Of a DNA stretch of 64,000 bases, positions 1,719 through 31,442 are shown piece by piece. Made by a program: the position numbers and the translations under genes. The stretch spans positions 24,176-88,175 of the forward strand of contig JAKSSP010000005.1 in assembly GCA_024403035.1 (NCBI GenBank), given 5' to 3'. Below the pieces are notes generated by a model, which was not told where the DNA came from, ran no database searches, and saw only the letters and a list, made by a program, of their open reading frames with translations. Within the stretch, counting starts at the first letter, position 1. Each line of letters begins with the position of its first letter. Source of the stretch: Mogibacterium sp. (GTDB lineage: Bacteria; Bacillota; Clostridia; Peptostreptococcales; Anaerovoracaceae).

Positions 1719-2969
1719 TCAATCTGTATGGCTTTCATTGTTCAATGCTCTTTTCATAGAGCTTTCCATCAGGTAAGTATATATCTTGTGGGGCAAAACT
1801 CGCCTGGCAACAGCTATTGCCCGATTTCTTATGAGGACGCGCCTTTCCTGCTCTTCCCTGACAAACACTTTATCAAAAATAATCTCAGATGATTTCCCAT
1901 TTTCATATGTAAGATATTTTTTACAAAAGGCCTGTATTCTCTCACCGTGGATATCATAGAATGAGTCAAGATTTTCTATGGAGTCAATGACCTCATCCGT
2001 AGTCAGAGCAAGACATCCGGGGGCCTCCGTTGAGATATCAAAGTAACTGCCTCTTGTGTTTTCGGTATATTCCTTTAAATCATAGGCATAGAAGACCATC
2101 GGCTTTCCCGTAAGAGAAAAGTCGAACATTACCGACGAATAGTCCGTGATAAGCACGTCAGTTACAGGGAACAGGTCCTCGATAGTGCTTACATTGCCGG
2201 CATCAAAGATGAACTTTCCGTCTTCTGGCACCTTGTAATACTCTGCTACAAAGTAATGCGGCCTTATCAGTAAAACATACTCATCCGACAAAGCATTTCT
2301 CATTGCCTCGATATCAAGTTCCATGTCGAATCTATCAAGATCTCTCCAAGTAGGCGCATAGAGGATGACTTTTTTATCTTCCGGGATGCCCATTTCTTCC
2401 CTAAGCCCGGAGGCAGCATCCTCATCGGTATGAAAAAGCCTGTCTGTACGCGGATAGCCGGTCTCAAGGACATTGTTTCGGTACCTGAACCATCTCCACG
2501 CCATCCTTTTGGTGAACTCTCCCTGTGCCACCAAGTAATCCCACATTGCTGCTCTTTTTACAGCCCTGAGTCTTTCTTTGTCAGTAGATATCTCATCTTT
2601 CACATCCAGTCCGAATGTCTTGAAAGGTGTGCCATGCATGGTCTGGATTATCACTTGCCCTTCCCTTTTTACAAAAGATAAAGGGAGGTTCGTGTTATAC
2701 ACAAAATACTTGGCAGTTGCAAGATAGCGATAAAACTCCTCCGTCTTGCGCTCCACCTTTTTTGCATTGCCTTTGACTGGCGTGTCCGCATCATTAAGAA
2801 ACCAGACGCACTCATATTCAGGGTGGTTTTCAATAATAAACTCATAAAAAGCGGCGGGGCTGCAACTGTAGTTCCTTCCCCACAGCGATTCGAAAACTAT
2901 ACAGTTTTCTTTTATCGGCTCGTTTCGAAAACCGCGGTATTTTTCTTTTAAAGAATCGTTATTCCCCAT
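1719..2969 (-). CDS. CDP-glycerol glycerophosphotransferase family protein (TagF-like)
   Basis: 416-aa ORF with the motifs IQTMHGTPFK, LYAPTWRD and ITDYSSVMFDF, typical of the TagB/TagF family. It overlaps the upstream gene by 11 nt. Confidence 0.85.
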   Translation of the reverse strand: MGNNDSLKEKYRGFRNEPIKENCIVFESLWGRNYSCSPAAFYEFIIENHPEYECVWFLNDADTPVKGNAKKVERKTEEFYRYLATAKYFVYNTNLPLSFVKREGQVIIQTMHGTPFKTFGLDVKDEISTDKERLRAVKRAAMWDYLVAQGEFTKRMAWRWFRYRNNVLETGYPRTDRLFHTDEDAASGLREEMGIPEDKKVILYAPTWRDLDRFDMELDIEAMRNALSDEYVLLIRPHYFVAEYYKVPEDGKFIFDAGNVSTIEDLFPVTDVLITDYSSVMFDFSLTGKPMVFYAYDLKEYTENTRGSYFDISTEAPGCLALTTDEVIDSIENLDSFYDIHGERIQAFCKKYLTYENGKSSEIIFDKVFVREEQERRVLIRNRAIAVARRVLPHKIYTYLMESSMKRALNNESHTD

Positions 2970-4302
2970 CCTTCAGCCGTTCGTATTCAGCTCCGAACAC
3001 TCTGCGGACTACACGCTCTGTCGCATGGCCATCATCAAGATATGTGAACTTGTTTTCAAACGCTTCATACTTATCCTTCATTTCCGGTGTGGAGAACCAT
3101 TCATCCACCGTAGCAATGCTGTCAAACAGAGCTTCCTGATTCTCTATAACAGGCCCCGGCAGCTCATCGAGAGATATATAGAACCCTCTAAGCTCATCTC
3201 TGTAATATTCAAGATCATACATATAGAATATCTCAGGACGTTTCAAAATGCCGTAATCAAAGAATACGCTTGAGTAATCCGTGATCAGAATGTCTGATAT
3301 GATATACAGGTCATTGATCTCAGGGTACAGGCATGCGTCAATGACAAAGCCGTTATATTCTTCAAAATCAAAAGTGTTGCCGATAAAGTAATGTGCGCGG
3401 AAGAGCACAACATAATCATCGCCAAATCTCTTTTTCATCTCCGCAAAATCTATAGGACTCTCGTAAACATAACCAATGTATTGTTCATGCTGATTGTCCC
3501 TCCACGTAGGCGCATAGAGGATGACTTTCTTTTCTTCAGGAATGCCTAAAGATTCGCGGATTCTTTTAACATCTGCTTCTGTATGATTGACGATCTCGTC
3601 ATTTCTCGGATATCCCTCCTCTATAACGATATCTTCTTTGCCAAGGGCTTTGAGATTAAATGCGCTTATAAACTTTTCCGTGCAATATCGTGAAGGAGAT
3701 ACCATGTATGTATACCTGGAGGCATCATTCTCATATACCTCTCTGACGGTCTGAACGGTGTTGCGCGCTTCACTGGCAGCAACCTCGATATCAAAGCCAA
3801 GTCTCTTAAGCGGTGTTCCATGCCAGCACTGAACATAAGTCTGTCCGTCTTTGATGCCTATTTGTTTAGGGACCCTCGAATTTGTGATCCAGTAGCCTGC
3901 TCTGGCATATGTGCGGTAATAATCAGGTGAACCCCATAGCATCAGTTCTGTTCTTTCGTCCTCCTCAAGATACAGATATTCATCCATAATACGATCCTTG
4001 AAAAACCAAACGAAATGATAGTCCCTATATGCAGGATCTTTTAACATATACTCATATATGGCTTTGGGACTGTCCGCATACTTGCGCCCCATGAAAGATT
4101 CGAAAATGATCAGCTTTTTATCTATTTCCTGGCCGGCAAACCATCTGTATCTGAGACGTCTTTTTAAACGTATTGATGCGCGATAAGCCTTCTTAAAAGA
4201 ATCGCTTCTTCTGCTTATAGCTGATGCTGCCCGTTTTATTGGTCTTTTGATTGTTCTGATTATTCTGGAACTTGTGCTCCGCTTGCTCGAATAATTGCTC
4301 AT
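2959..4302 (-). CDS. CDP-glycerol glycerophosphotransferase family protein (TagF-like)
   Basis: 447-aa ORF with a basic N-terminus followed by QCWHGTPLKRLG, LYAPTWRD and ITDYSSVFFDY. The RBS AGAGGAAAAG lies upstream of the ATG. Confidence 0.85.
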   Translation of the reverse strand: MSNYSSKRSTSSRIIRTIKRPIKRAASAISRRSDSFKKAYRASIRLKRRLRYRWFAGQEIDKKLIIFESFMGRKYADSPKAIYEYMLKDPAYRDYHFVWFFKDRIMDEYLYLEEDERTELMLWGSPDYYRTYARAGYWITNSRVPKQIGIKDGQTYVQCWHGTPLKRLGFDIEVAASEARNTVQTVREVYENDASRYTYMVSPSRYCTEKFISAFNLKALGKEDIVIEEGYPRNDEIVNHTEADVKRIRESLGIPEEKKVILYAPTWRDNQHEQYIGYVYESPIDFAEMKKRFGDDYVVLFRAHYFIGNTFDFEEYNGFVIDACLYPEINDLYIISDILITDYSSVFFDYGILKRPEIFYMYDLEYYRDELRGFYISLDELPGPVIENQEALFDSIATVDEWFSTPEMKDKYEAFENKFTYLDDGHATERVVRRVFGAEYERLKDGE

Positions 4303-11055: not shown

Positions 11056-11790
11056 TCAGTTCCTTGAATCATAGTACTCGATTGCATCTGTAATATTGCC
11101 ATCAAAAAGCAATCTTCCCTTTTCAAGAACGATTCCTCTCTTGCAGAATTCTTTTGCAGTATCAAGTGAATGTGTAACGAATAACAATGTAACATTTTTA
11201 TCAGCCATTATCTCATTGACTTTTTTCATGCACTTTTTTTTGAAATTTTTGTCACCTACACTGAGTGCTTCGTCTACTATCAGAATGTCAGGCTGTGCAT
11301 TTACGCTGATAGCAAATCCCAGCCTTGCCTTCATTCCGCTTGAATAAGATCTGAGAGGCTGATCAATATAATCTCCCAGGTCTGCAAATTTAATTATGTC
11401 ATCCTGGACCTCATCGATCTCGCTCTCAGTCATTCCCATCAAACTGCATTTGAATCTGATGTTCTCTTTTCCGGTAGATTCGGGCTCAAAGCCGGCTCCA
11501 AGTTCCAAAAGAGCGCTGACTTTGCCGTTCACGATGATTTCGCCTTCAGTTGGAAATGTCACTCCTGTTACCATCTTCAGAATTGTGGATTTGCCGGCAC
11601 CATTACGGCCGAGCAAGGCCACACTTTCTCCGCGAAAAATGTCAAACGACATGTCATTGACCGCTTTGTTTTCTTTATATGGCACTTTTTTGCTAAAAAG
11701 GCCCTTTAGTCGGGCCCTGTCAGATTTGTAAAGTTTGTAAAGTTTCGTAACGTGATCGAAACGAATAACTAAATTATTTCTTATATCCAT
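11056..11790 (-). CDS. tagH: Teichoic-acid/polysaccharide export ABC transporter ATP-binding protein
   Basis: 244 aa with Walker A GRNGAGKST, signature YSSGMKARL and Walker B ILIVDEAL. Same operon orientation as the ABC-2 permease at 14429-15238. Confidence 0.85.
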   Translation of the reverse strand: MDIRNNLVIRFDHVTKLYKLYKSDRARLKGLFSKKVPYKENKAVNDMSFDIFRGESVALLGRNGAGKSTILKMVTGVTFPTEGEIIVNGKVSALLELGAGFEPESTGKENIRFKCSLMGMTESEIDEVQDDIIKFADLGDYIDQPLRSYSSGMKARLGFAISVNAQPDILIVDEALSVGDKNFKKKCMKKVNEIMADKNVTLLFVTHSLDTAKEFCKRGIVLEKGRLLFDGNITDAIEYYDSRN

Positions 11791-11991
11791 TTTTGTTCTC
11801 CGATGGTAATCCTGCTTTCGTAGTCATCTTTGAATATTCCGACGTCCAGGAGCCACTCTCTCCGATGATGAGAGCCACCTAGTCCGAGTGGCAGAGCCAG
11901 TCGGAAACAATATTTATTCCGATGTTTAGAGCCACCCTTTAAAATTGAATCATGGGTAATACCAAATTCAATTGAAGGGAGGACAACATCA

Positions 11992-14281: not shown

Positions 14282-14428
14282 TTTTCAAGGTACGTGGATC
14301 AGCAGAGCTGCCCACCACGGGTGGCTCTCTGATCCGGAGCGCTGGCTCTCAATAACGGAACCAGTGGCTCTGTTTTAACAGAATGGGTGGTTCCGCCACC
14401 ACGGAATACTCAATCTTCGGTCTGAATG

Positions 14429-15238
14429 TTACAGAACATCAGGTATATCTTCTCTAAGCTTTTTATATGATCTAAGAGCCAAAATGATAAAAATGATGAA
14501 AGTTATCAGGAAGCAGCAAAGTGATACTTTGTCCTGCCAGAACCACTTTTTATATATAAATGCTCTGCGATAACCGCTCGAAATAACTGTAACGGGATTG
14601 AATTTTAATATTATTCTCAGTTTTCTGGACGGAATATCGTCCACGCTATAAATAATGCCCGACATCCAGAATACGACAGTTGAGAGTGATCTGACCAAAT
14701 TTTGAAAGTCCTTGCTGATTGCAGAAAGCATGCCCGTTAGAAGCGAATATACAATAAAAAAGGCAACCATCATTAACATGTATATCGGAATCTGAAGCAA
14801 ATATATGTCAGGCATGTGACCGGCGCATATAAACAATACCATTGTAATAATCAGCAATGCAAGGTGTATGTAGAGATGTGAAAGGTTATAGTATGTGGGA
14901 ATAATTGATATCGGAAATCTCATCTTAGTGACAAGATGACTGTATTTTCTGATACAACCTGCACCGCCTGTAATCAGTTCTTGCATATAGAACCATGGTA
15001 AAAAGCCTGCAGTGAGCCAAAGAAAGTACGAATATCCCTCAACAGGGTTGCCGTGTCTGAGTCCGATCGAAAACGCGAACCAAAACACAAACAGGGTTAT
15101 CATCGGCTTTATGATGGCCCAAGCCCATCCTAATGCAGCGCCACGATATGTTTTTATCAAATCTGATTTGGCCAGCATGAGGATTTGATTCTTGTATGTT
15201 TTGTGTTCTTTTATTATTTTTCTTATTGTTTCTGCCAT
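14429..15238 (-). CDS. tagG: Teichoic-acid/polysaccharide export ABC-2 type permease
   Basis: The multi-span membrane ORF reads LIKTYRGAALGWAWAIIKP.., typical of the ABC-2/TagG family. I prefer the ATG at 15238 (MAETIRK) to the TTG at 15259. No Shine-Dalgarno sequence is visible upstream. Confidence 0.8.
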   Translation of the reverse strand: MAETIRKIIKEHKTYKNQILMLAKSDLIKTYRGAALGWAWAIIKPMITLFVFWFAFSIGLRHGNPVEGYSYFLWLTAGFLPWFYMQELITGGAGCIRKYSHLVTKMRFPISIIPTYYNLSHLYIHLALLIITMVLFICAGHMPDIYLLQIPIYMLMMVAFFIVYSLLTGMLSAISKDFQNLVRSLSTVVFWMSGIIYSVDDIPSRKLRIILKFNPVTVISSGYRRAFIYKKWFWQDKVSLCCFLITFIIFIILALRSYKKLREDIPDVL

Positions 15239-15281
15239 ATTAGTATTTTTTGTCTGCAAATTGCATTAATAAGTTGAACAC

Positions 15282-16226: not shown

Positions 16227-18410
16227 TTAATTTGATTTTATAATCGGCCATTTTTTTCTTCCTCTTTTTTTGACTTTTTGTATTTTTTTCCTTCCTCTTC
16301 TTATATTGTCCAACACGTTCAGCAGGCCGATTTCCGCTGCCTTATCTATTTGAGTGCGTATCTCCTGGTAATAACGGCTATCCTGCTTCAGCAGTCTTAT
16401 ATCTTCATTCTCTTTGTCATAGAAAATTGCTGCCGCTACTCGTTTATACACATCGAATTGCAGCTGATGGTTTTCTATCAAGTGCTCGATTGCTTCTATC
16501 TCTTTTTTCTCTGCAAGCCCGTAATTAACTACTCGATTCCAGTCACAATAATCATATATGGCATTAATCAGCTTGGCTACAAGCATTTCCTGATTGTCTG
16601 CAAACTGTTGCTCCAGCAATTTTAACTTCTCAGAACAATGCTGTTCACCGTCTTTAATAGAATAATATTGTGCAGGTGGCACATATAGGTATATCTGACT
16701 GTATTTTCTGATGTATCCCTTGAGAAAACTAATGTCAAGACCTGCAAATGGCTCCTTAAGTATCTCCCCTTCTAATGATTTCAGTATCTCCTTGTGCCAT
16801 ACCTTGTTGATTAAACCATCAGTGCATTCATTGTTTAAATAATCTGATAGAAGCGGTATCTCAACTGTTTTACCATTTTCACCCTCAATCGTAGTATAAT
16901 GGCGAAGCGACAGGACAGGAAAGATGCTCCTTTTCATAATAACTGCTATCGCCTTTGTGACCAGAAATGCCGGATCACATGATTCCATCAGTAAAACAAA
17001 GTCATGCCCGTCATTCTGACAGGCGATCGCTTCTCTGTAAATATCTGTCTCTCTGAAAGATGATACCGCACATACATCGAAAGACGGATGGTATCTGTCA
17101 ATCCAACGTTTCATCCATCCTAACTCTTTATGCCAGCGTACTTCATTTTTCGTCCCTTTATACTTTTTCCTATAAGCGGACACCATTTCTCCGAGATTGC
17201 GCTTATCAAAAAATTCTCTGATATTTTTCAGATCATTCACCCTGTCAGTCAGTATGTGTATATTCGTGTGTATGTCAGCATTTCTGAATATACAGCTGTA
17301 AACATTGATAAACACCTCCGGAGTGAGGTCTCGTACAATCAGATAAACATCTATTTCGATTCTTTCATCGCTGATATCCTTCTTAATATAACTAACCAGC
17401 TCCTTTTTTGTGAACTCCGTCAGTTTAAGATATCTATATGCTTCTTTTGCGCATGTCAGGGTCGATAAACCCGTCGAATCAAATGTAACAAGCCGATCAA
17501 ACTTCCGATCTATGTAGTTTAGAGTTTCGATAGGGAAATCTTTAGGCAGTACCACGACATTATCTCCGCCGTAAACTCCGATATAGTTCCTCTCTGCGGG
17601 GTGAGGCTTGTAATACACCGTATTGCCTTTTTCAATCTCGCTTCTTATTATCTTTTTGCATAACAGGTAGTTCTCGCGGGCGTTGCAATACTGCGCACGA
17701 TCCAAAGGCTGACCGAGAAACAGTGAGCTGGGATTGTTGATCTCAATCTCGTTTATCCTAAAAATATAAAGCAGTGCTTTTTTGAACTTCTCCTCATTCA
17801 AAGAAACTATGTCTTTGTAGTCCCATACAACGATCTTTGATGAATAATAATCATCATCCATCTCTACGCTGCTGATGATTTTTGTTACTTTCTCATGTCT
17901 GTACAATGGCTCCGGAAAGTATCCTTTTTCTATAAAGGGTACAAGGTGTTTAGCATCACCTTTGAACTCATGGATTCCTAGCTGTCTTGGAATTGAGCAG
18001 TAGCCATCCTCTACTCCAACAATCCGCTCAAAGTGCTTGCATATGTAATAATAGTGGATTTGAAAATCATTGTAGATGAACAGTTCATCGCTGGTATCTG
18101 CGTCCTTGAAATATTCGGCATATTTCTCCTCAAGATACTCATCGAAGAGTGAGGTTCCGATGGCATCTATGGCATCGTCATCCAGATTACTTGTTTTCCT
18201 TAATTCTCTGGTAAAGCGTTGGTTTTCGCCTTTTTTTGTAATCCCGACCACTTTATTGAAAACACCGGTATCCCGGATCCTTTCAAGCAACGACTCATCA
18301 GGATTCAGATATTGCATCGAAAAGTATAGATTTGGTTTTTCTTCGAAGGTCAATGCCAGTGCAATAGAATGCATCATCTGATAATATGTCATTACAACTA
18401 GAGATTTCAC
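16227..18410 (-). CDS. Putative nonulosonic-acid (pseudaminic acid) transferase with an uncharacterised C-terminal half
   Basis: 727 aa. The N-terminal half carries VGVEDG (the D/E-D/E-G motif) and, about 135 aa later, YYKPHP (the HP motif). These are the two motifs shared by bacterial sialyltransferase families. It is the last gene of the pse-type operon. Confidence 0.5.
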   Translation of the reverse strand: MKSLVVMTYYQMMHSIALALTFEEKPNLYFSMQYLNPDESLLERIRDTGVFNKVVGITKKGENQRFTRELRKTSNLDDDAIDAIGTSLFDEYLEEKYAEYFKDADTSDELFIYNDFQIHYYYICKHFERIVGVEDGYCSIPRQLGIHEFKGDAKHLVPFIEKGYFPEPLYRHEKVTKIISSVEMDDDYYSSKIVVWDYKDIVSLNEEKFKKALLYIFRINEIEINNPSSLFLGQPLDRAQYCNARENYLLCKKIIRSEIEKGNTVYYKPHPAERNYIGVYGGDNVVVLPKDFPIETLNYIDRKFDRLVTFDSTGLSTLTCAKEAYRYLKLTEFTKKELVSYIKKDISDERIEIDVYLIVRDLTPEVFINVYSCIFRNADIHTNIHILTDRVNDLKNIREFFDKRNLGEMVSAYRKKYKGTKNEVRWHKELGWMKRWIDRYHPSFDVCAVSSFRETDIYREAIACQNDGHDFVLLMESCDPAFLVTKAIAVIMKRSIFPVLSLRHYTTIEGENGKTVEIPLLSDYLNNECTDGLINKVWHKEILKSLEGEILKEPFAGLDISFLKGYIRKYSQIYLYVPPAQYYSIKDGEQHCSEKLKLLEQQFADNQEMLVAKLINAIYDYCDWNRVVNYGLAEKKEIEAIEHLIENHQLQFDVYKRVAAAIFYDKENEDIRLLKQDSRYYQEIRTQIDKAAEIGLLNVLDNIRRGRKKIQKVKKRGRKKWPIIKSN

Positions 18411-18428
18411 GTTCCTAGTCCTCCTGTT

Positions 18429-19442
18429 TTATTTAATTGCATCAAAGGTAAGCGGTGTTCCCTTTTTCGCGTCATCACGAAATGTCCTTCCCAGCACATA
18501 CTCCAGATACTTAGGGGCAAGCCCATTTGAAGGACGCACACTTTTGACGTTTTCTTCGGTTATGACGTCACCGGCTTTGACGTCTTTAGCCACAAACAGA
18601 GAGCGCGCGTACTTACGACTGTTTATCTTTTTTTCAGTCAATTCGTAAGTTACCTCTCCGCGAATCTTTTCTACCATTCTGATTTTTCTGACCATTGTTT
18701 CGAATTCATCAGGAGTCATTGAAAAGGACGCATCCGGCCCGCCGATGGCTTTATCGAGGATGAAATGCTTTTCGACTACCGCAGCATCCATGGATGCTGC
18801 GACCACAGCCACCTCGTCTCCCGTGGTATGGTCCGAAAGACCTGTCTTGCAGCCGAATCGCTCCGCCATGTCCTGCATGGTTTCGAGATTAGCATCCTCA
18901 ATACTTGCCGGATATTCAGACGTGCATTTCAGCAGGTATACATCGTAATTTCCTATCTGATGGCATGCATGAACAGCATCCTGTATCTCTTCTTCAGTTG
19001 CGATTCCCGTCGAAATAATCATAGGTTTGCCAAAACTGGCAGCATATTTTATCAGTGGAATATCTGTGATTTCAAATGAAGCAATTTTATAAATCGGATT
19101 GCCGCATTTTTCGAGCAGATCTACTGCCGTTTTATCAAACGGAGTGGAAAACAGTGTAAAATCTATGCTTTTCGCATAATCGAACAGCTCTTCGTGCCAC
19201 TCCCAAGGCATATATGCTTCACTGTATAACTTGTACAGCGTCGTTCCATCCCAGATGGTCCCGGTGTTTATCTGAAAATATTCATTATCACAATCCAGTG
19301 TGATTGTGTCCGGCGTATACGACTGGATTTTTGCTGCGTCGCAGCCTATCTCCTTTGCCTTAAGAATGGATCTTTTCACGAGCTCTATATCGTGCCCGTG
19401 ATTAGCGGAAATTTCCGCAACTATCATCACTCTATTGCCCAT
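18429..19442 (-). CDS. pseI: Pseudaminic acid synthase (NeuB family)
   Basis: NeuB-type sequence MIVAEISANHGHDIELVKRSI..AKIQSY with a C-terminal SAF domain. I prefer the ATG at 19442, which sits behind GGAGGAG. Confidence 0.8.
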   Translation of the reverse strand: MGNRVMIVAEISANHGHDIELVKRSILKAKEIGCDAAKIQSYTPDTITLDCDNEYFQINTGTIWDGTTLYKLYSEAYMPWEWHEELFDYAKSIDFTLFSTPFDKTAVDLLEKCGNPIYKIASFEITDIPLIKYAASFGKPMIISTGIATEEEIQDAVHACHQIGNYDVYLLKCTSEYPASIEDANLETMQDMAERFGCKTGLSDHTTGDEVAVVAASMDAAVVEKHFILDKAIGGPDASFSMTPDEFETMVRKIRMVEKIRGEVTYELTEKKINSRKYARSLFVAKDVKAGDVITEENVKSVRPSNGLAPKYLEYVLGRTFRDDAKKGTPLTFDAIK

Positions 19443-20409
19443 TGTCTCCTCCGCGGAATGCCAGTTCATAAATAAAGTCTTTGCCGGATTTCATTGAATA
19501 AAATGTCTGCAGTTTTTCAAGTATGATTTTCCTTTTATCATACGAAAACATACGAGCCAGCGCATCCCTGTCATCCTCATACATTGCCTCAATATATCCG
19601 TTATCCGAGAGATATTTTGTATTGATCATTTGATTATCCACCACCGCGACCAGTACGGCTGGACACATCATCTTTATCAGCTCATTGGTCGTCTGCCCTG
19701 CTGAAGCAACTGCAAAATCGCAGCATTTCATCAGATCGCACATCTCGGAAGCTCCTATATTCAAATACAACCTGTCCTTTTCATTCAATTCCGCCTGAAT
19801 GAAGTTCAGATTTTGATATGCCTTGGTACATACCACATGGAGCCTGACCTCTTTTGACAGTTCCCTGATCATTCTGATGATTGATGCAGTCCTTCCCATA
19901 GGATCGGTCCCTCCCATCGTAATCAGAATGTCTGTAACCGTCTCTTTTATCTCCTTTTGTCCGTTTGAAGTGAACTCATCCCTCAGCAGTGTGTAATCTT
20001 TACCCAGAAACAGCTCGTTGTTCCTGTCCTGAGGATACTCGAGACAGATCGCAAAATAGTTTGGGTTAAGGATCTTCATGTCATGATAGTCCAGCCTGTT
20101 ATTGTCATCGATGACAACCATATCACGAACATGTTTTTGAAATTGCTCCAGGTCTTTAATATCTACATGATACGAATCGACCACAAGCGTAGTTTCAGAA
20201 TCGAGCAGCCCTTTAAATACATCCGGATCTTTCCACTCCACGAACCTGACATAGTCTCTGGTCAGGTTGGTCTTAGCTGCTTTGTCAGCCATAAGGTAAA
20301 AAATGACGTCTCCGCCCTCTCTTATGGCGTGTTCGCAGATACCGGACATTCTGTAAAAATGGCCGTATCCGTAATTGAATCCGGCCTCAGAAAAAATAGC
20401 TAATTTCAA
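19432..20409 (-). CDS. pseG: UDP-2,4-diacetamido-2,4,6-trideoxy-beta-L-altropyranose hydrolase-like (PseG/SpsG family)
   Basis: 325 aa with the N-terminal GxGHxxR-like segment (NYGYGHFYRMSGI) and a GT28-C-like fold pattern. It sits between the cytidylyltransferase and the synthase. There is no fused GNAT domain. Confidence 0.7.
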   Translation of the reverse strand: MKLAIFSEAGFNYGYGHFYRMSGICEHAIREGGDVIFYLMADKAAKTNLTRDYVRFVEWKDPDVFKGLLDSETTLVVDSYHVDIKDLEQFQKHVRDMVVIDDNNRLDYHDMKILNPNYFAICLEYPQDRNNELFLGKDYTLLRDEFTSNGQKEIKETVTDILITMGGTDPMGRTASIIRMIRELSKEVRLHVVCTKAYQNLNFIQAELNEKDRLYLNIGASEMCDLMKCCDFAVASAGQTTNELIKMMCPAVLVAVVDNQMINTKYLSDNGYIEAMYEDDRDALARMFSYDKRKIILEKLQTFYSMKSGKDFIYELAFRGGDNGQ

Positions 20410-21236
20410 TGATTTCTCCTCAGCAGCTCTGCTGCCCTGTCCATTTCCTGAAGTTTTAGAAGTTTTTCTGCCGCCTCGAGCTCTTCCTCCAGGGTATCGT
20501 ACTTTTTTTTCTGCATGATATCAGCGTTGATTGCGCTGATATACGGATGTCCGGCAAAACAGTCCAGTACGGTTCTGAATGAAAATCTATCCTTTTCGTT
20601 CCTGATAAGGTCTGTGATGATGCACGCCAAAGTATAGTCATTGACTGTGTCTACGGTAATCCTTACTTTGCTGTAATCCTCTCCGTCCAGTGTCAGACTG
20701 CCTACCCTGAATTCGTCCTGATGTGAGGTCACATAACTTGTGACATGCTCTCTGTAGAACTTCTCTTCGGTATTCTTGTGCATCCATTTCAGAACATCAT
20801 AGGTGAATATCTCGCAGTCAAGCCCATGCGGATAAGTCCTCCGGATGCAGTTGCTCGCGTACTGATAGTTTCCCTTGATGAAAAGCTCTATCAGCGCATC
20901 TATTACCGATGGATCAAGGAAAGGGCAGTCGCTCGTGATTCTAACAATATTATCGTAGCCGAACTCGTTCGCGGCACCATAAAATCTGTCCAGCACATCA
21001 TTCTCACTTCCGCGGAAGCACGCTATTCCTTCTCTTTTCGCATACTCTACCAACGGGTCATCATCTGAGTTTGTTGTGCATGCAATAAGAAAATGATCCA
21101 GTTTTTTTGCTGATCTGACCCTTTCGACAACACTTCCGAGGACGCTTTTTCCCTCTTGATAATCAATGGTACGCAGAACCTTGCCCGGTAGTCTGCTGGA
21201 CGTCATTCTGGCTTGAATGATGCAACCTGTTCTCAT
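20406..21236 (-). CDS. SpsF-type cytidylyltransferase (CTP_transf_3), putative CMP-nonulosonate synthetase
   Basis: The N-terminus reads CIIQARMTSSRLPGKVL, as in SpsF/COG1861 proteins. It overlaps pseG by 4 nt. Confidence 0.7.
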   Translation of the reverse strand: MRTGCIIQARMTSSRLPGKVLRTIDYQEGKSVLGSVVERVRSAKKLDHFLIACTTNSDDDPLVEYAKREGIACFRGSENDVLDRFYGAANEFGYDNIVRITSDCPFLDPSVIDALIELFIKGNYQYASNCIRRTYPHGLDCEIFTYDVLKWMHKNTEEKFYREHVTSYVTSHQDEFRVGSLTLDGEDYSKVRITVDTVNDYTLACIITDLIRNEKDRFSFRTVLDCFAGHPYISAINADIMQKKKYDTLEEELEAAEKLLKLQEMDRAAELLRRNH

Positions 21237-21248
21237 TATCGGTCCTCT

Positions 21249-22259
21249 CTACACTAGATGATATTCCTTCAGAAGTTTTTTGATATCCTCAACGGACAGC
21301 CACTCGGTATTGTTTCCAGAGCCGTATTCGAAACCTTCCTCAATCAAAGTTCCGCCTTCCTTGAAGGATTTTTTGAAATCGAACCATTCGAAGTTTGGAT
21401 AAATGATGTAGTAATTACCATAATCATATGTTGTTCTGGAATCGTCCTTCGTAATCATTACCTCATGGATCTTCTCACCCTCTCTGATTCCTACGATTTT
21501 CATCTTTGCGTCAGGGGCCATAGCCTTGCAAATGTCGGTTACATTGTATGAAGGGTTCTTGAATACAAAAGTCTCTCCGCCTGTCATGTTTTTGACTGCC
21601 ATAATAACAAGTTTTACGGCTTTGTCGAGAGTCATCCAGAATCTGGTCATTCTCTCGTCTGTTACAGGGAGTTCATCGAATCCCTTGTCGATAAGATCCT
21701 TAAAGAACGGGATGACAGAGCCGCGGCTTCCGGATACATTTCCGTATCTGACCAGAGCGAACTTTGTCCCGTTTGAGCCGGAGTAAGCGTTTGCGGAAAC
21801 GAACAACTTGTCGGATACGAGCTTTGTTCCACCGTAAAGGTTGATAGGGTTTACCGCCTTATCCGTTGAAAGAGCGACTACTTTTTCAACACCGCAGTCA
21901 AGAGCCGCGTCGATGATGTTCATGGCTCCGTTGATGTTGGTCTTGATAGCTTCTGTCGGGTTATACTCGCAAGCCGGCACCTGTTTCATAGCAGCTGCAT
22001 GAATGACTATGTCAACACCGTTAAAGGCTCTTTTAAGCCTGTCCTTGTCTCTTATATCACCAATGAAAAATCTGAACTTTTTCATTGCTTCAGCACCGTA
22101 CTTGGCGGTGAAATCCTTCTTCATAAGATCCTGCTTGAACTCGTCTCTGGAGAAGATGATGATTTTTCCGAAGTCATACTTTTCCAGTAATTCTCCCGAG
22201 AAGGCTTTCCCGAAAGACCCTGTTCCTCCGGTGATAAGAATCGTTTTGTCTTCAAACAT
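21249..22259 (-). CDS. pseB: UDP-N-acetylglucosamine 4,6-dehydratase (inverting)
   Basis: ILITGGTGSFGKAF...IIFSRDEFKQ...GDIRD, the pattern of the PseB/FlaA1/CapD short-chain dehydratases. Confidence 0.85.
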   Translation of the reverse strand: MFEDKTILITGGTGSFGKAFSGELLEKYDFGKIIIFSRDEFKQDLMKKDFTAKYGAEAMKKFRFFIGDIRDKDRLKRAFNGVDIVIHAAAMKQVPACEYNPTEAIKTNINGAMNIIDAALDCGVEKVVALSTDKAVNPINLYGGTKLVSDKLFVSANAYSGSNGTKFALVRYGNVSGSRGSVIPFFKDLIDKGFDELPVTDERMTRFWMTLDKAVKLVIMAVKNMTGGETFVFKNPSYNVTDICKAMAPDAKMKIVGIREGEKIHEVMITKDDSRTTYDYGNYYIIYPNFEWFDFKKSFKEGGTLIEEGFEYGSGNNTEWLSVEDIKKLLKEYHLV

Positions 22260-22307
22260 TTTTGTTTCCTCCGTATTATGATAAATAGCGTCTTAACATA
22301 TAAATAA

Positions 22308-23456
22308 TTACTTCTTGAATTTTTTTATAGTTTCAATAACAAATCCCTGTTCGTCCTCCGTCATGCTGTGATACATTGGGAGACTGAGTTCTCCGGCATA
22401 AAATGCTTCAGCTTCAGGATAATCTCCTTCTTTAAACCCATAATTGTCCATATAGTATGGATGCAGGTGCAGCGGCACGTAGTGGATTTGTGCGAATATC
22501 TTATTCTCGCGTAGATATGCGTGCAAAGCCTTGCGGATCTCTGCGGAGCAGCATCTGACAGTAAATAAATGATATGAATGGACTGTATCTCCCTGTGCAT
22601 CAAACCCCAGCCGAGGTGGGAGTTCCAGAAAACTGCAATCTTTTAATTCTTCGTGATATCTGGCAGCGATGGAGTTTCTTGCCGCAAGATTATCTTCAAG
22701 TCTTGAGAATTGACTTAGTCCCAAAGCTGCCTGGAAATCCGTCAGTCTGTAGTTGTAACCTAGAGACTGCATCTCATAATACCAAGGGCCATCATTCTTT
22801 CTAAGGCTCGCCGGATCTCTGGTGATGCCGTGAGTCCTGAAAAGTCTGAGTTTTTCATTCAGCTCGTCACTATTAGTGAGAACCATTCCTCCCTCGCCTG
22901 TTGTGACATGCTTGACCGGATGGAATGAAAGGATGGCCATATCCACATACTCCATCCCAAAAGTTCCGTCTCTTCTGCTGCCAAGAGCGTGGCATGCATC
23001 GTGTATTATCCCGCATCCTTTGTCCTTAGCTGTCTCATGGACGGCTTTCAGATCGACCGGATATCCTGCATATGAGACCGGCGTTATTACTTTTGTTTTG
23101 TCGTTGATCGCGTCTGCAATCTTATTGACATCAATGCAATTGGTCTCCGGATCCATGTCGACAAAACATGGGGTAGCTCCACAGTATATGCCGCCATTCA
23201 CAGAGGCAGCAAATGTAATCGGTGACGACAGTACTTCATCCCCCGGACAAGTGCCTAAGGCATTGTATGCGGCATGAAGAGCAGCAGTGCCGTTTGAAAA
23301 AGCTACGCCATACTTCGCTCCGTGGTATTCAGCAACTGTTCTTTCGAATTCAGGAAGAACCTCTCCCTGTGTGATCAACTCTGACTTGAGAACCTCTATT
23401 ACTTTTTCAATATCCTCTTCTGTAATGTCTTGTTTTCCGTATGGTATTTTGTTCAT
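22308..23456 (-). CDS. pseC: UDP-4-amino-4,6-dideoxy-N-acetyl-beta-L-altrosamine transaminase (DegT/DnrJ/EryC1 family)
   Basis: IPYGKQDITEEDIEKVIEVLKSELITQG..FSNGTAALH and SFHPVKHVTTGEGG (the PLP lysine region), as in PseC-type aminotransferases. Confidence 0.8.
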   Translation of the reverse strand: MNKIPYGKQDITEEDIEKVIEVLKSELITQGEVLPEFERTVAEYHGAKYGVAFSNGTAALHAAYNALGTCPGDEVLSSPITFAASVNGGIYCGATPCFVDMDPETNCIDVNKIADAINDKTKVITPVSYAGYPVDLKAVHETAKDKGCGIIHDACHALGSRRDGTFGMEYVDMAILSFHPVKHVTTGEGGMVLTNSDELNEKLRLFRTHGITRDPASLRKNDGPWYYEMQSLGYNYRLTDFQAALGLSQFSRLEDNLAARNSIAARYHEELKDCSFLELPPRLGFDAQGDTVHSYHLFTVRCCSAEIRKALHAYLRENKIFAQIHYVPLHLHPYYMDNYGFKEGDYPEAEAFYAGELSLPMYHSMTEDEQGFVIETIKKFKK

Positions 23457-23478
23457 CTCGCTCTCTCTTTCTAACTAT

Positions 23479-24630
23479 CTATATGCATGCTTTCAGTATT
23501 TTTTGAACAGCCTTGTTATCGAGTACCAGATATCCATTGATACTGCCCTTGCTGCATATAGATGCTGCCATGTCTTCTGCATCTATATTTTCAATGCCTG
23601 CACCCTTCAGCGTCGTTACCAGGCCCAGATCTCCGTATAAGAATTTTTCCAGATCTTCTACTGCTTCTTCCTCATCCGCCGATCCAAACACATTCCGCCC
23701 GAATTCTCTAAACCTGCTCCTTGTTTCAGGATCGGCCTCCATACAGTATCTCATCCATTTCGGAGTGATGACAGCCAGTCCGAGTCCGTGAGTCATGTTG
23801 TATCTGGCGGAAAGTTCGTGCTCTATCGGGTGGCAACTCCATACCTGTCTTGAGCCACCACCGAACAGACCATTGATAGCCCAGGATGCGGCCCACAGGA
23901 GATTGCCTCTGGCTTCATAGTTTTCAGGCTCTGCAAGCGCGATCTTCGCATTAGCCACGACAGTCTTCATGACCCCCTCCATCATCCTGTCCAGAAGACA
24001 GAAGTCCAGGTCTTTCTTGAAATAGCTTTCCATGACATGTGACAGTATGTCAGCGGCGCCGCAAGCGGTCTGAAATGCCGGCACAGAATACGTCAGCTCC
24101 GGATCCAGGAATGAAGCTTTCGGAAATACAGGGAACCCTCCGCGCCCCAGTTTTTCGCATGTTTCGTCATTGCTTATGACCGCGCCGCATGTCATCTCGG
24201 ATCCTGTTGATGCCATCGTGACGACAGTGAACAGCGGAAGCGCCTTTTCTATCATTCTGCGCGGACCACCGTAGAACTCCCATGGATCAAAGTCAACGCA
24301 AGCGCCTGCCGCGATAGCCTTGGATGCATCAATGACCGAACCCCCTCCCACAGCGAGCACAATATCTATACAGCTTTCTTTGCATTTCGCTGCGCCGCTG
24401 CGTATGGATGCGATTTTCGGATTAGGCTCTATTCCGCCGTGTTCAAACACCTCGAAATCATCCTTAAGCAGATCTTTGATCTTTGCCAAAAGCCCTGTTC
24501 TGATTACAGAGCCTCCTCCATATACTATAAGTATCTTACTGCCGAACGGCTTCATCTCGGTATTTAGCTTGCTGAGGCAGTCCTTCCCAAAGACCATTTT
24601 TGTAGGGATATGAAAAACGAAGTCATTCAT
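23479..24630 (-). CDS. Iron-containing (group III) alcohol dehydrogenase
   Basis: 383 aa with the GGGSVIDASKAIA motif and the histidine-rich metal-site region (HPIEHELS). It overlaps the upstream aminotransferase by 8 nt. Confidence 0.8.
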   Translation of the reverse strand: MNDFVFHIPTKMVFGKDCLSKLNTEMKPFGSKILIVYGGGSVIRTGLLAKIKDLLKDDFEVFEHGGIEPNPKIASIRSGAAKCKESCIDIVLAVGGGSVIDASKAIAAGACVDFDPWEFYGGPRRMIEKALPLFTVVTMASTGSEMTCGAVISNDETCEKLGRGGFPVFPKASFLDPELTYSVPAFQTACGAADILSHVMESYFKKDLDFCLLDRMMEGVMKTVVANAKIALAEPENYEARGNLLWAASWAINGLFGGGSRQVWSCHPIEHELSARYNMTHGLGLAVITPKWMRYCMEADPETRSRFREFGRNVFGSADEEEAVEDLEKFLYGDLGLVTTLKGAGIENIDAEDMAASICSKGSINGYLVLDNKAVQKILKACI

Positions 24631-25840
24631 TATTTGTCTCCTGCAGTTCTTCCAGGACTCTATCGAGCGTGTCGATTGCGAAGTCGATATCCTTTTCTTC
24701 TATGAGATAATCCGGCAAGAACCTTAGCGTGCGGCCACCATTAGTTCCTTGTATGATAACTCCGTTTTTGATCATCCTGTCATAGAGTGTTGCATAAAGA
24801 GGTCTGTAATCATCTACACCTTCGTAATAAAGGTCGCATCCCAGCATGAGACCGTGTCCACGGGCATCCTTTATATGCTCATTCTTTTCCTCAAGTCCTT
24901 TTAGTCTTGACAAGAAATAATTGCCTCTGGACGTAATTCCGGAAAGCACATCGTGTTTCTCAATGTACTCAACTGCAGTATTAATTATTGCTGCGGCAAA
25001 TGAGTCGTTCTGATGAGAACTATAATGTGACATTCTATATACATCGTCAGGTACGAACTCTTTTTTAAACATGGCTACTGAAACCGGAAAGCCCAGCCCA
25101 ACGCTCTTTGCAAGAATGACCATATCCGGAACAGTATCGAAAGCCTGATAAGCAAACCACTTTCCTGTCCTTCCGAAGCCCGTCTGGCTTTCGTCAAAGA
25201 TAAGGATCGTATCATTCTTGTCACAGACCTCGCGAAGCAGATCAAACCATTTCTTTGGCGGATACAGCATTCCTCCTACAGAAACAATTGGCTCGACTAC
25301 AACCGATGCATACTGTCCTGTAGAAAGCAATTTATCAAGTTCTGCAGCTGAACGGACAGCTTCTTCGTCAGTTGTCGGCACATTGACTGTCCCTATATCA
25401 TCGACATGTGGTTTTGCAAACTTTCCTCCGAAAGTAATGGTCTGTGAACCCAAAGTCAGTCCATGATAGCCTTTATCAAAGCAGACCACACCTTCTCTTC
25501 CTTTTATGAACTTGGAGAATCTCATGCAGAACTCGACAGCTTCAGACCCCGTGCTAAGCAGAATGCTGTAGGCATCCATGTCTCCGCTTAATTCATTCAA
25601 CTTATTTGAGCAGACCGCTACTTCATCTGTGTATATATTTGATGCTGTATGAACGATGTTACGAGCTTTTGCAAATATCTTATCTAAAACTTCCTCATTG
25701 GAATGACCCAGAGCAACACAAAACTGTCCGGAATTGAGATCAAGATATTTGTTGCCTTCTGTATCATATACCCAACTACCATCGCCCTTTGACATTACCT
25801 CTTCGGTAAAGTGAATGATAGGCAGCAAGTGATTGTCCAT
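24623..25840 (-). CDS. Class-III PLP-dependent aminotransferase
   Basis: 405 aa with STGSEAVE, IFDESQTGFGRTGKWFAYQ and ILAKSVG (the PLP lysine), the pattern of acetylornithine/GABA-type aminotransferases. Confidence 0.8.
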   Translation of the reverse strand: MDNHLLPIIHFTEEVMSKGDGSWVYDTEGNKYLDLNSGQFCVALGHSNEEVLDKIFAKARNIVHTASNIYTDEVAVCSNKLNELSGDMDAYSILLSTGSEAVEFCMRFSKFIKGREGVVCFDKGYHGLTLGSQTITFGGKFAKPHVDDIGTVNVPTTDEEAVRSAAELDKLLSTGQYASVVVEPIVSVGGMLYPPKKWFDLLREVCDKNDTILIFDESQTGFGRTGKWFAYQAFDTVPDMVILAKSVGLGFPVSVAMFKKEFVPDDVYRMSHYSSHQNDSFAAAIINTAVEYIEKHDVLSGITSRGNYFLSRLKGLEEKNEHIKDARGHGLMLGCDLYYEGVDDYRPLYATLYDRMIKNGVIIQGTNGGRTLRFLPDYLIEEKDIDFAIDTLDRVLEELQETNNE

Positions 25841-25846
25841 ATGTTT

Positions 25847-27085
25847 TTATACCTCCCTTATAACGAACTGTTTTTCTATCTCAGCGCAGATCGCCTTCGC
25901 GCTTTCTAAAGTGTCTGCCGCGACAACATAAAAGCCCCTGCCCATGACTGATCTGCCATCAGTGACCATCCCTATGGAATCGCCCGGCTTGAGATTGCAA
26001 TTATAACAAACTACATCCTCTCTGCTCTTTGTAGTCTCAGGATCTGGCAGCTTTTCTATTATTCCTTCCTTAAGGTCAAAGTATTTTATCAACATACTTT
26101 TTGCATTATATTGATAATCCATTTCAAAAGGCTTTCTCTCTTTCGAGGCAATGGCAAAATCAATATAACTGCCCAGCATATCAAACCCTGTTGCGTATCT
26201 TGTGAAATAGTTGTGCAGATAGTGCCCGGATGGACGGGGCGAGACCTCGATAACAAATGCCTCTCTTCCATCATCGAGTATGTCTGCATGCATAAGGCAG
26301 TTGTTCAATCCTAAAGCGTCTACTATTCCTTTCAAGAGAGTGTTTATTCTGTTGAATAATTCTTCCGTCTCACGATTGTATTCTATCGCAAAATAGCCAA
26401 CACACTGTCTATATGGCTCCGGTGTAAGGATCTTCTCTCTGAGCAAGATCAGATGTGTGGTTCCGTTGACAATAAATACATCAGCTCCGTATTCAATTCC
26501 TTTTTTACATGTCTCTGCAATAAAGTCTTCTTCTTTTGATACTATTTCACCGACATCTTCCGATAATTCCGCGTATGAGCCATACTTTTTTACCGCTCTG
26601 CTTCCTGATCCGAATCTGGGCTTTAGTATCAGCGGATAATCTATATCGGCAAGTTTTGAAACATTTTCATTGCTTTTGACCAAAAGAGCTTCGGCATTTC
26701 TAAGCCCTTTATTTGAAAGGGTTTCGTGGAACGCCCATTTATCTGTTGACAAATGCGCAGCGTTGAACCGGACCCCCGGCAAATCAAATCTGTCATTCAC
26801 AGCGCCTGTTGCAACAAGAATTCTCCCCACCGGTACCGGAAGAAGAAAATCAATCGGATTTTTACAAAAATAATCAAAAAGCGCCTCTTCATCATTGAGA
26901 TCAACGACTGCGCTCTGATTTGCATGCTCAAGCCCCGGAGCTTTTTCGTTCCCATCTACAGCTATCGTGTAGATTCCTCTTTTTTTTGCTTCTTCTATAG
27001 CATATATTGATTCGTTGCTGGCTCCAATTATTCCTGCGCTGGCTGCTATCTTCATAAATCTTTTCCCTTTTTGAATGCAACTCAT
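25847..27085 (-). CDS. ATP-grasp domain ligase
   Basis: 412 aa with DYPLILKPRFGSGSRAV and EVSPRPSGH, patterns typical of the ATP-grasp fold. It is the first gene of the operon. The start could instead be the ATG at 27055. Confidence 0.7.
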   Translation of the reverse strand: MSCIQKGKRFMKIAASAGIIGASNESIYAIEEAKKRGIYTIAVDGNEKAPGLEHANQSAVVDLNDEEALFDYFCKNPIDFLLPVPVGRILVATGAVNDRFDLPGVRFNAAHLSTDKWAFHETLSNKGLRNAEALLVKSNENVSKLADIDYPLILKPRFGSGSRAVKKYGSYAELSEDVGEIVSKEEDFIAETCKKGIEYGADVFIVNGTTHLILLREKILTPEPYRQCVGYFAIEYNRETEELFNRINTLLKGIVDALGLNNCLMHADILDDGREAFVIEVSPRPSGHYLHNYFTRYATGFDMLGSYIDFAIASKERKPFEMDYQYNAKSMLIKYFDLKEGIIEKLPDPETTKSREDVVCYNCNLKPGDSIGMVTDGRSVMGRGFYVVAADTLESAKAICAEIEKQFVIREV

Positions 27086-27179
27086 AATCTCTTAAATTTT
27101 AACATATGCCATTAATTCAGGCAATTATCATATGTACTTACAGCCGAAAGATAACGATATACAGGCTTTATGAACAAAC

Positions 27180-27216
27180 CAAAGATGAACTCCATCGCAC
27201 TGGATGAAGTTCATCT
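27180..27216 (-). terminator. Hairpin terminator between the FN3 pseudogene and the pse operon
   Basis: agatgaactccatcg / ggatgaagttcatct forms an imperfect 15-bp stem with a short loop and T-rich flanks. Confidence 0.5.
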
Positions 27217-27242
27217 CATTAAAAGATTTATTGATATAGTTC

Positions 27243-31329: not shown

Positions 31330-31378
31330 GTCTTGTACGCCTTGTTGATGCTCTATAAAAAACTTTACACTTGACGTT

Positions 31379-31442
31379 AAAAACGGGCATGACATTTAAA
31401 GTTTTATGGCAAAATTTTAAACGTCATGCCCGTTTTTGTCAA
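31379..31442 (-). promoter_or_regulatory. Putative sigma-A promoter of fic embedded in a 15-bp inverted repeat
   Basis: On the minus strand: TTGACA (31442-31437), a 17-nt spacer, then TAAAAT (31419-31414). The arms AAAAACGGGCATGAC (31379-31393) and GTCATGCCCGTTTTT (31423-31437) are perfect complements. One arm fills the spacer and the other lies downstream of the predicted start site. Confidence 0.55.

Follow-up and report, generated by a model that had tools for sequence, protein, structure and literature searches.

An ATP-grasp ligase as a candidate substitute for PseH in a pseudaminic acid-type operon of Mogibacterium sp.

The canonical pathway to pseudaminic acid (Pse), a sugar resembling sialic acid, is that of Campylobacter and Helicobacter and runs through PseB, PseC, PseH, PseG, PseI and PseF. 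Here we describe a nine-gene operon of Mogibacterium sp. from the gut or rumen, located on the minus strand at positions 16227-27085 of a 64,000-nucleotide (nt) stretch of contig JAKSSP010000005.1 (this whole 64-kb stretch is termed the window). It resembles the canonical system in having equivalog-level PseB, PseC and PseI, a PseG homologue and a cytidine monophosphate (CMP)-transferase, all within one operon. It differs in that the PseH acetyltransferase of the GNAT family is missing, PseG scores below the profile cut-off, the cytidylyltransferase belongs to another CTP_transf_3 subfamily, and three additional enzymes lead the operon: an ATP-grasp ligase, a class-III aminotransferase and an iron-type alcohol dehydrogenase (Fe-ADH), together referred to as the trio. 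We propose that the operon makes a CMP-activated Pse derivative in which N-4 of the uridine diphosphate (UDP)-hexose (equivalent to N-7 of Pse) is acylated by the ATP-grasp ligase instead of PseH, with the two partner enzymes tailoring the appended group; we assign this reading a probability of about one half. The locus is an extension of a known pathway and not a new kind of system.

An earlier note on this DNA, made without database searches, had invoked nonulosonic acids bearing N-acyl groups other than acetyl, and these are established chemistry, with alanyl, glutamyl, hydroxybutanoyl and glyceroyl as examples. Clostridium botulinum flagellin carries an N-methyl-glutamyl legionaminic acid (PMC2674064). 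Escherichia coli O161 makes CMP-Leg5Ac7Ala (lea1-7), for which an aminoacyl group in place of the N-7 acetyl and a dedicated 'alanyltransferase', Lea3, at the acetyltransferase slot are proposed (PMC7685785). That system is a legionaminic acid pathway and has no aminotransferase/alcohol dehydrogenase pair; Lea3 is itself a proposal, and we liken it to the Mogibacterium ligase by pathway role, not by protein family. The Shewanella oneidensis nonulosonic acid modification operon sfmABCDE encodes SfmE, a 412-residue ATP-grasp_4 protein that is needed for full flagellin modification; no clear PseH is present, and the Pse bears a single acetyl group and a further moiety (PMC3765264). This system differs in that the glycan is on flagellin and the partners are a thiamine pyrophosphate (TPP) enzyme, a reductase and a methyltransferase, and SfmE is likened to the ligase described here by its description, not by sequence comparison. 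A 2026 survey of clostridial Pse loci makes no mention of such ligases (PMC13317340). In the searchable literature, we found no description of the ligase family, of its two partner types (see below) or of a PseG–ATP-grasp fusion; the combination of genes is thus, as had been supposed, not a described pathway there.

Family assignments were made by Pfam and NCBIfam profile searches. These bear out the names that had been given to nine minus-strand open reading frames (ORFs), which were found at the positions reported. In order of transcription, and preceded by two boundary elements, the operon consists of:

27182..27217, minus strand: terminator-like hairpin of 15 pairs with a T-rich tail, marking the 5′ boundary of the operon
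27096..27124, minus strand: promoter-like site TTGCCT-17-TAAAAT with an extended −10 TG, a consensus match only, directly upstream of the ATP-grasp gene
25847..27085, minus strand: ATP-grasp carboxylate–amine ligase of the L-amino-acid ligase (LAL) type (Pfam ATP-grasp_4/_3 and a weak LAL_C2 match), the proposed PseH substitute
24623..25840, minus strand: class-III (omega-type) aminotransferase dependent on pyridoxal phosphate (PLP), of a distinct subtype (Pfam Aminotran_3)
23479..24630, minus strand: Fe-type alcohol dehydrogenase of the YqhD/butanol-dehydrogenase (aldehyde reductase) group (Pfam Fe-ADH and ADH_Fe_C)
22308..23456, minus strand: PseC, UDP-4-amino-4,6-dideoxy-N-acetyl-beta-L-altrosamine transaminase (TIGR03588, 432.8 bits; cut-off 423.5)
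21249..22259, minus strand: PseB, inverting UDP-GlcNAc 4,6-dehydratase (TIGR03589, 519.5 bits; cut-off 407.75)
20406..21236, minus strand: CTP_transf_3 cytidylyltransferase of 276 residues, presumed CMP-nonulosonate synthetase (Pfam PF02348)
19432..20409, minus strand: PseG-like UDP-sugar hydrolase of 325 residues, unfused (TIGR03590, 134.6 bits, below the cut-off of 153.55)
18429..19469, minus strand: PseI, pseudaminic acid synthase (TIGR03586, 469.8 bits; cut-off 340.25)
16227..18410, minus strand: 727-residue protein, putative pseudaminyl-transferase or polymerase, with a sialyltransferase-like (GT52/GT38) N-terminal GT-B domain (first ~315 residues)

All nine genes are intact and full-length compared with their homologues, and the gaps between them are 6, −8, 22, 48, 12, −4, −38 and 18 nt. 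Since the hairpin and the promoter-like site lie just 5′ of the ATP-grasp gene and only gaps of 48 nt or less follow, the trio is predicted to be co-transcribed with the pse genes as one unit, and not to form the separate unit that the earlier note had considered. Translation of the ATP-grasp gene probably begins at the second ATG, at 27055, which is preceded by a ribosome-binding site; the resulting 402-residue product is 100% identical to a protein from a Mogibacterium sp. metagenome-assembled genome (MAG). The gene upstream of the operon (27243-28400, minus strand), which the hairpin (27217-27182) ends, encodes a fibronectin-type-III-domain surface protein in several frames or fragments and is a pseudogene.

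PseB and PseC are 52-57% and 44-48% identical, respectively, to their annotated counterparts. The cytidylyltransferase has neither an NCBIfam PseF match nor a blastp match to annotated canonical PseF, and so 'SpsF-type', the label used previously, is fair. As canonical controls, we used two annotated loci, from a Klebsiella plasmid (L085) and from Parabacteroides (L086), both of which have the order pseB-pseC-pseF-pseG/GNAT-pseI, with PseG–GNAT fusions of 510 and 486 residues. The PseG-like protein of the window is 27-29% identical to the PseG halves of these canonical fusions, and the alignment stops where the GNAT domain begins.

No Acetyltransf_* (GNAT) or Hexapep domain was found by a Pfam scan of the ~57 ORFs spanning the whole 64-kb window. 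Likewise, phmmer and hidden Markov model (HMM) searches with PseH domains, the HMM being built from five seeds (two PseH domains from the canonical controls and three added), gave no match in the six-frame translation of the window. The earlier observation that no GNAT-like ORF is present, whether free or fused to PseG, is therefore upheld across the window. We then extended the comparison to other genomes. At E ≤ 1e-30, 188 relatives of the ATP-grasp protein were found among representatives of clusters formed at 50% identity; a scan of one genome per GTDB species, based on a nine-sequence alignment, gave 80 loci, mostly from Butyrivibrio, Lachnospiraceae and Eisenbergiella, of which three are close relatives. 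ORFs were called by a simple greedy procedure and compared with the window proteins, and the remainder were clustered. Among ATP-grasp loci, the PseH-domain HMMs match only L034, where a 148-residue GNAT adjoins the ligase, and, more weakly, L032. In near-complete loci, a Pfam scan of 126 cluster representatives found no GNAT family with at least two members; because one representative was used per cluster, a recurrent GNAT cluster could stay hidden, a gap that the HMM searches mostly close. PseH is near-universally absent from ATP-grasp-bearing Pse loci.

The absence of PseH could also mean that a gene for this enzyme, or for a different N-acetyltransferase, lies elsewhere in the genome. The operon would then make ordinary Pse5Ac7Ac, and the trio would add a separate decoration (an O-linked aminoacyl ester or N-5 re-acylation) or serve another component of the polymer. 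The search covered 64 kb of a MAG, Pse genes need not lie together (many Butyrivibrio loci have no PseB or PseC within 10 kb), and GNAT and ATP-grasp domains coexist in L034, L095 and L032. Nevertheless, we consider this explanation quite improbable: 25 loci (before de-duplication) combine the ligase with at least three of PseB, PseC, PseG and PseI and still have no detectable PseH; PseH is normally clustered with PseG or fused to it; and fusions of PseG to the ATP-grasp ligase exist.

These fusions provide the key evidence on where the ligase might act. In two proteins, P0179 (775 residues) and P0257 (754 residues), the ATP-grasp domain is fused to PseG and occupies exactly the position of the GNAT domain in canonical PseG–GNAT fusions. 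The fusions thus mirror the canonical arrangement, lending support to the placement of the ligase at the PseH step. The contig encoding P0179 (L096) carries, in this order, PseI, the PseG–ATP-grasp fusion, Aminotran_3 and CTP_transf_3 genes, and its aminotransferase is of the window subtype (49% identity, with the same diagnostic residues).

The structure predicted for the ligase fits such a role. Its LAL_C2 match (PF18603) is 25.2 bits, under the cut-off of 29.4, and its AlphaFold2 model has a predicted local distance difference test score (pLDDT) of 92. The top Foldseek matches are 4dim, BL00235 (TM-score 0.78), RizA and YwfE, followed by PurK and PurT; TM-scores against BL00235 and RizA are 0.74-0.78, and phmmer also matches LALs. 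The LALs (BL00235, RizA and YwfE/BacD) are the best structural and sequence neighbours and share ATP-dependent carboxylate–amine ligation via an acyl phosphate. They differ in that identity is 14-22% and that, judging by genomic context, the acceptor of the window protein would be an amino sugar and not another amino acid. The modelled fold is consistent with activation of a small (amino) acid and its coupling to an amine.

As proposed in the earlier note, the co-occurrence of the trio with pse genes was surveyed, and the trio is kept with pse genes elsewhere. In three other genomes (L001/L006, L005 and L007), the eight-gene order of the window is retained at 60-93% amino-acid identity, and in L001 TagF-type genes come after the eight-gene block. 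In an Erysipelotrichia MAG locus (L029/L088), the order is instead PseB-CTP-PseG-PseI-PseC-ATPgrasp-AT3-FeADH, and the locus further carries MnaA-like (Epimerase_2) and TagA (WecG) proteins, an ATP-binding cassette (ABC) ATPase and a 637-residue GT52/polyST homologue of the 727-residue protein. With this rearranged order, there are two independent arrangements that tie the trio to Pse genes, and each of them occurs in a locus of teichoic-acid style. The cytidylyltransferase is kept at the same operon position in L001, L007 and L029. More generally, one or more Pse genes lie no further than 10 kb away in 66 of the 75 non-redundant ATP-grasp loci. A flagellar glycosylation island of Clostridium tetani (L004) has the ATP-grasp gene and a window-type aminotransferase gene between PseB/cytidylyltransferase and PseI, beside Maf and flagellin genes. 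No DegT-type PseC was found within 10 kb in this locus; the idea that the class-III aminotransferase substitutes for PseC was rejected for the window, which has both. In Acetoanaerobium noterae (L087, 6599-9919), a PseH-less Pse cluster without the window's ligase family has four genes inserted between those for the cytidylyltransferase and PseI; they encode a PylC-like ATP-grasp protein (317 residues), a HAD hydrolase and two methyltransferases. The PylC-like protein suggests that ATP-grasp ligases have been recruited into Pse pathways independently.

We next consider the enzymes that accompany the ligase. In the aminotransferase (GabT numbering), D239, Q242, K268 and R398 are conserved in 13 orthologues, while R141 is replaced by Leu and E211 by Val in all 13. 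In GabT, we take R141 to bind the distal carboxylate of the substrate, E211 to be the Glu switch and R398 to bind the α-carboxylate. The Leu and Val replacements indicate that the enzyme is not a classical γ-aminobutyrate (GABA), acetylornithine or ornithine:2-oxoglutarate transaminase. Pyruvate-type ω-transaminases and dialkylglycine decarboxylase likewise have neither R141 nor E211, and pyruvate-type ω-transaminases still accept ω-amino acids. The loss of R141 might be read as a sign of a substrate without a carboxylate; we downgraded this interpretation because of the same pattern in these enzymes. For the Fe-ADH, the best NCBIfam match is PRK15138 (YqhD-type; 260 bits, below the cut-off), and PDB matches are 7w9x, 1vlj and 1oj7 (YqhD). 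An Fe-ADH of the aldehyde-reductase type suggests that the two enzymes work in the direction from amine to aldehyde to alcohol. The aldo/keto reductase and class-III aminotransferase of L034 were considered as a non-homologous analogue that would fix this reductive direction, and were set aside as strong evidence for it: the L034 aminotransferase is 19% identical to that of the window, has W141 and has no R398.

The ligase has a second type of partner. In most Lachnospiraceae loci, it is paired with a fold-type-III PLP decarboxylase of the ornithine/diaminopimelate (DAP)/arginine family. This decarboxylase is often fused to a CTP_transf_3 cytidylyltransferase (~640 residues) and lies between the ATP-grasp gene and PseI (~20 species; Butyrivibrio loci L009-L030); in L012, for example, the cytidylyltransferase–decarboxylase ORF comes after 10001-11146. 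Decarboxylase loci also carry a GT52-like protein, an ABC exporter, an Acyl_transf_3 protein and GtrA. Among the 75 non-redundant loci, 13 have the class-III aminotransferase only, 45 the decarboxylase only, none both and 17 neither, several of the last being on short or truncated contigs. Some aminotransferase-only loci lack the aldehyde reductase. In an approximate neighbour-joining tree of the ligase, aminotransferase-associated sequences separate from decarboxylase-associated ones. Among proteins of solved structure, the decarboxylase is closest to N-citrylornithine decarboxylase, followed by DAP decarboxylases and then by BtrK (L-glutamyl-[BtrI acyl carrier protein (ACP)] decarboxylase); the substrates of N-citrylornithine decarboxylase and BtrK are amino acids already conjugated via their distal group. 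In butirosin biosynthesis, BtrJ (ATP-grasp) and BtrK (ornithine/DAP-type decarboxylase acting on γ-Glu-S-ACP) follow a ligate-then-decarboxylate logic like that of the sister decarboxylase loci. The two systems differ in that a carrier protein is used there and none here, and the window has no decarboxylase.

The identity of the partners bears on the order of events. The earlier note had the aminotransferase and dehydrogenase produce a free acyl donor by interconverting short-chain amino, oxo or hydroxy acids. A possible series leads from 4-aminobutyrate through succinic semialdehyde to 4-hydroxybutyrate, and the ATP-grasp ligase, replacing PseH, would then attach the product to the 4-amine. 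The missing PseH and the fusions speak for this order as they do for tailoring after ligation; relatives of the Fe-ADH include 4-hydroxybutyrate dehydrogenase (132 bits), and the occurrence of the trio alone as a cassette in one locus (L037, see below) is compatible with the synthesis of a free metabolite. Amino sugars bearing an N-(4-hydroxybutanoyl) group are known, and PMC7281560 cites an example. On the other side, the carboxylate-binding Arg and the Glu switch of GabT/ArgD/OAT-type enzymes are lost in 13 of 13 aminotransferase orthologues, which is suggestive only, the alternative partner resembles decarboxylases that act on conjugates and is fused to a cytidylyltransferase, and aminotransferase-only loci without a reductase exist. 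Given the loss of R141 and E211, the exchange with a decarboxylase of a conjugate-acting type and the fusions to pathway enzymes, the evidence for prior synthesis of a free acyl donor is no stronger than that for tailoring once ligation has taken place, and we regard a pathway in that order as rather unlikely.

The PLP partners and the fusions also bear on the main alternative, in which the ATP-grasp protein activates a sugar carboxylate, either C-1 of Pse or CMP-Pse or that of some other acidic residue in the polymer, and couples it to an amine or diamino acid made or trimmed by the partner enzymes. A verified precedent exists in the Campylobacter jejuni HS:2 capsule (Cj1438C, ATP-grasp; Cj1437, transaminase; Cj1436; Cj1435, phosphatase), where PLP enzymes and an ATP-grasp amide ligase that receives its amine from a transaminase decorate a surface polysaccharide sugar (PMC11800379). 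Mutually exclusive amine-handling partners fit such an amidation naturally, and N-citrylornithine decarboxylase, the best PDB relative of the decarboxylase, acts on a carboxylate amidated by a diamino acid. In addition, fusions of PseF to the ATP-grasp domain (P0177) and of PseF to the decarboxylase tie both enzymes to a stage at which the sugar has a carboxylate, and fusions of GNAT to ATP-grasp domains are easily explained if PseH keeps its usual role. However, amidation leaves the missing N-acetyltransferase unexplained in 73 of the 75 loci, and PseG–ATP-grasp fusions place the ligase at a stage where the sugar has no carboxylate. The capsule system also differs in that its carboxylate comes from the sugar and its amine from the PLP enzymes, and in that it requires a phosphatase (PMC11800379); Cj1438C is a TupA-like ATP-grasp protein, whereas the window protein matches ATP-grasp_4/_3 and LAL folds and gave no match to the Pfam TupA-like domain. 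We judge amidation to be unlikely. Furthermore, we know of no C-1 amides of nonulosonic acids.

Several observations weigh against our proposal that the ligase stands in for PseH, and we gather them here. P0189 (L095, 3111-4775) is a fusion of a PseH-like GNAT with an ATP-grasp domain, and L034 (6231-8348) has both adjacent. A Pse locus on an Aureibacter plasmid has a distant ATP-grasp gene between pseF and pseI together with a small acyltransferase. From these three cases it follows that an acetyltransferase can be present alongside the ligase, which is not necessarily its replacement. The PseF–ATP-grasp and PseF–decarboxylase fusions fit action at the nonulosonate or CMP stage equally well as action at the UDP-sugar stage. 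In L037, signalling and ABC genes flank the trio, and the nearest ~10 kb contain no Pse gene; judging by this locus, the trio behaves as a cassette. Data from S. oneidensis indicate that Pse with a free amine may be viable (PMC3765264), making the argument that the PseH step must be filled weaker. A PseH could be encoded beyond the 64 kb of this one genome that were searched, and very divergent acetyltransferases might escape a five-seed HMM. Finally, the functions given to members of this family are predictions. The idea put forward in the earlier note, an ATP-grasp enzyme in place of PseH, therefore stands in part: it gains from the PseG–ATP-grasp fusions, the near-universal absence of PseH and the LAL-like structure, and loses from the GNAT–ATP-grasp fusions and adjacencies. 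The window-type system matches the GNAT-less architecture, but in another branch the ligase would work alongside a PseH-like domain. L095 and L034, which represent that arrangement, share the other class-III aminotransferase subtype (W141, no R398), and L034 also carries an aldo/keto reductase, a FemAB-like protein and a DUF559–AP_endonuc_2 protein; this arrangement is a third variant of the module.

The last gene of the operon had been described as a 727-residue transferase. A transferase it remains, specifically a sialyltransferase-family protein: it matches PF07388 (A-2_8-polyST) with 41.4 bits (cut-off 23.3) and PF07922 (GT52) with 39.3 bits (cut-off 26.1), and belongs to a family of about 50 proteins of ~720 residues. 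E134-D135-G136 and H270-P271 are invariant in 30 homologues. The D/E-D/E-G and HP sialyltransferase motifs were reportedly defined by Freiberger et al. in 2007. The AlphaFold2 model (pLDDT 86) matches GT-B sialyltransferases and polysialyltransferases in Foldseek (2zwi, 5wcn/5wc6), as well as GT-A enzymes; the latter matches apparently stem from a second domain in the model. The C-terminal part (~400 residues) comprises a poorly conserved α/β domain, a helical region and a basic tail. A DxD motif was sought in the C-terminal half as support for a second catalytic, GT-A domain and none was found. Thus, the protein shares Pfam matches, the E-D-G and H-P motifs and the GT-B fold with bacterial sialyl- and polysialyltransferases (GT52, GT38 and GT80), and differs from known sialyltransferases in its ~400 extra C-terminal residues, which match no family, and in its presumed donor, a CMP-Pse derivative and not CMP-Neu5Ac. 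That it uses a CMP-nonulosonate donor is suggested by its adjacency to the pse genes.

Beyond the operon, genes typical of wall teichoic acid synthesis and export are found on the same strand:

14429..15259, minus strand: TagG-like ABC-2 permease (ABC2_membrane), probable exporter subunit
11056..11790, minus strand: TagH-like ABC ATPase (ABC_tran)
1719..4302, minus strand: two TagF-type CDP-glycerol/ribitol phosphotransferase genes (Glyphos_transf)

The TagF-type polymerases and the TagGH exporter that had been noted near the operon are therefore present, though now interrupted by insertion sequences (ISs). The wall-polymer context drawn from them is borne out by sister loci, which carry TagA, MnaA, TagG/H-like and TagF-type genes; none of the linkage-unit enzymes TagO, TagA and MnaA was found in the 64-kb window.

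Taken together, these data suggest the following route. PseB and PseC, to judge from their equivalog-level matches, would convert UDP-GlcNAc to UDP-4-amino-4,6-dideoxy-beta-L-AltNAc. The LAL-like ATP-grasp ligase would activate the carboxylate of a small amino acid, or another small acid, as an acyl phosphate and couple it to the 4-amine. The aminotransferase and the YqhD-like Fe-ADH would next act on the appended group, turning its terminal amino carbon into an aldehyde and then into an alcohol, giving an omega-hydroxyacyl-type side chain; alternatively, the acid may be finished before ligation. The divergent PseG, PseI and the SpsF-type cytidylyltransferase would then yield CMP-Pse5Ac7(acyl), which the 727-residue polyST/GT52-like enzyme may transfer or polymerize into a polymer of the wall teichoic acid type, for export by the TagGH-like ABC transporter. 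In sister lineages, the decarboxylase replaces the aminotransferase and would presumably give a different, amine-terminated side chain. The data show which genes are present and conserved, that no PseH is detectable, how the fusions are built, that the two partners exclude each other and which folds the proteins have; which acid is used, which atom accepts it, and in what order and direction the steps run are inferred.

More broadly, and tentatively, we suggest that a portable ATP-grasp 'aminoacylate-then-tailor' module has replaced PseH across many Firmicutes (Mogibacterium, Lachnospiraceae/Butyrivibrio, Erysipelotrichia and some Clostridium). It would come in two exclusive flavours, a transaminase (with or without an aldehyde reductase) giving omega-oxo- or omega-hydroxyacyl side chains and a decarboxylase giving omega-aminoacyl, zwitterionic ones, all in forms of Pse not described before; in the Mogibacterium locus, the sugar would be built into a TagGH-exported teichoic-acid-like polymer by a two-domain polysialyltransferase-like enzyme. 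This generalization is more doubtful than not. In the literature consulted, aminoacyl-type groups are attached by enzymes that are either proposals or have no assignment; a concrete candidate family with dedicated tailoring partners is now offered by this locus and its ~100 relatives. If the proposal is correct, it would constitute a new enzymatic route by which pseudaminic acid is diversified, lead one to expect new surface antigens among the Firmicutes that abound in the gut, rumen and mouth, mean that a 'Pse pathway' annotation of a locus does not imply Pse5Ac7Ac, and provide enzymes for the chemoenzymatic synthesis of Pse analogues. Culturable carriers of the ligase exist, for example Butyrivibrio hungatei and B. 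proteoclasticus.

The window is from a MAG and is rich in IS elements, and the locus may be partly decayed. The IS load is heavy in 6828-16070, with two non-identical IS21-type istA/istB pairs (6828-9135 and 11992-14281), a DDE transposase (9422-10831) and an rve fragment; no repeats shared between the surroundings of these elements were detected. The second IS21 element (11992-14281) splits the TagG-like permease from the TagH-like ATPase, and the rve fragment (15282-16070) splits the permease from the operon. A truncated extra ABC ATPase lies at 1059-1577. A TarS-like glycosyltransferase gene (4326-5924, minus strand) is split by an in-frame stop ('...PPTSL*EDIPV...'), with a GT2 domain in 5376-5924 and a weak TarS_linker match in 4326-5360, and is probably either a pseudogene or the product of a sequencing error. 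The flanks also encode a Fic-domain protein and a helix-turn-helix (HTH)–Uma2 (putative restriction endonuclease-like) protein, at 30148-31395 and 43275-44051, which are apparently unrelated to the operon. Finally, the dnaA-dnaN region (49000-52200) has a G+C content of 26-41% in 400-nt windows, compared with 46-53% in its flanks and 54-56% in gyrB/gyrA, which is unusual for core replication genes and could reflect AT-richness near oriC, foreign origin or a chimera in the MAG assembly.

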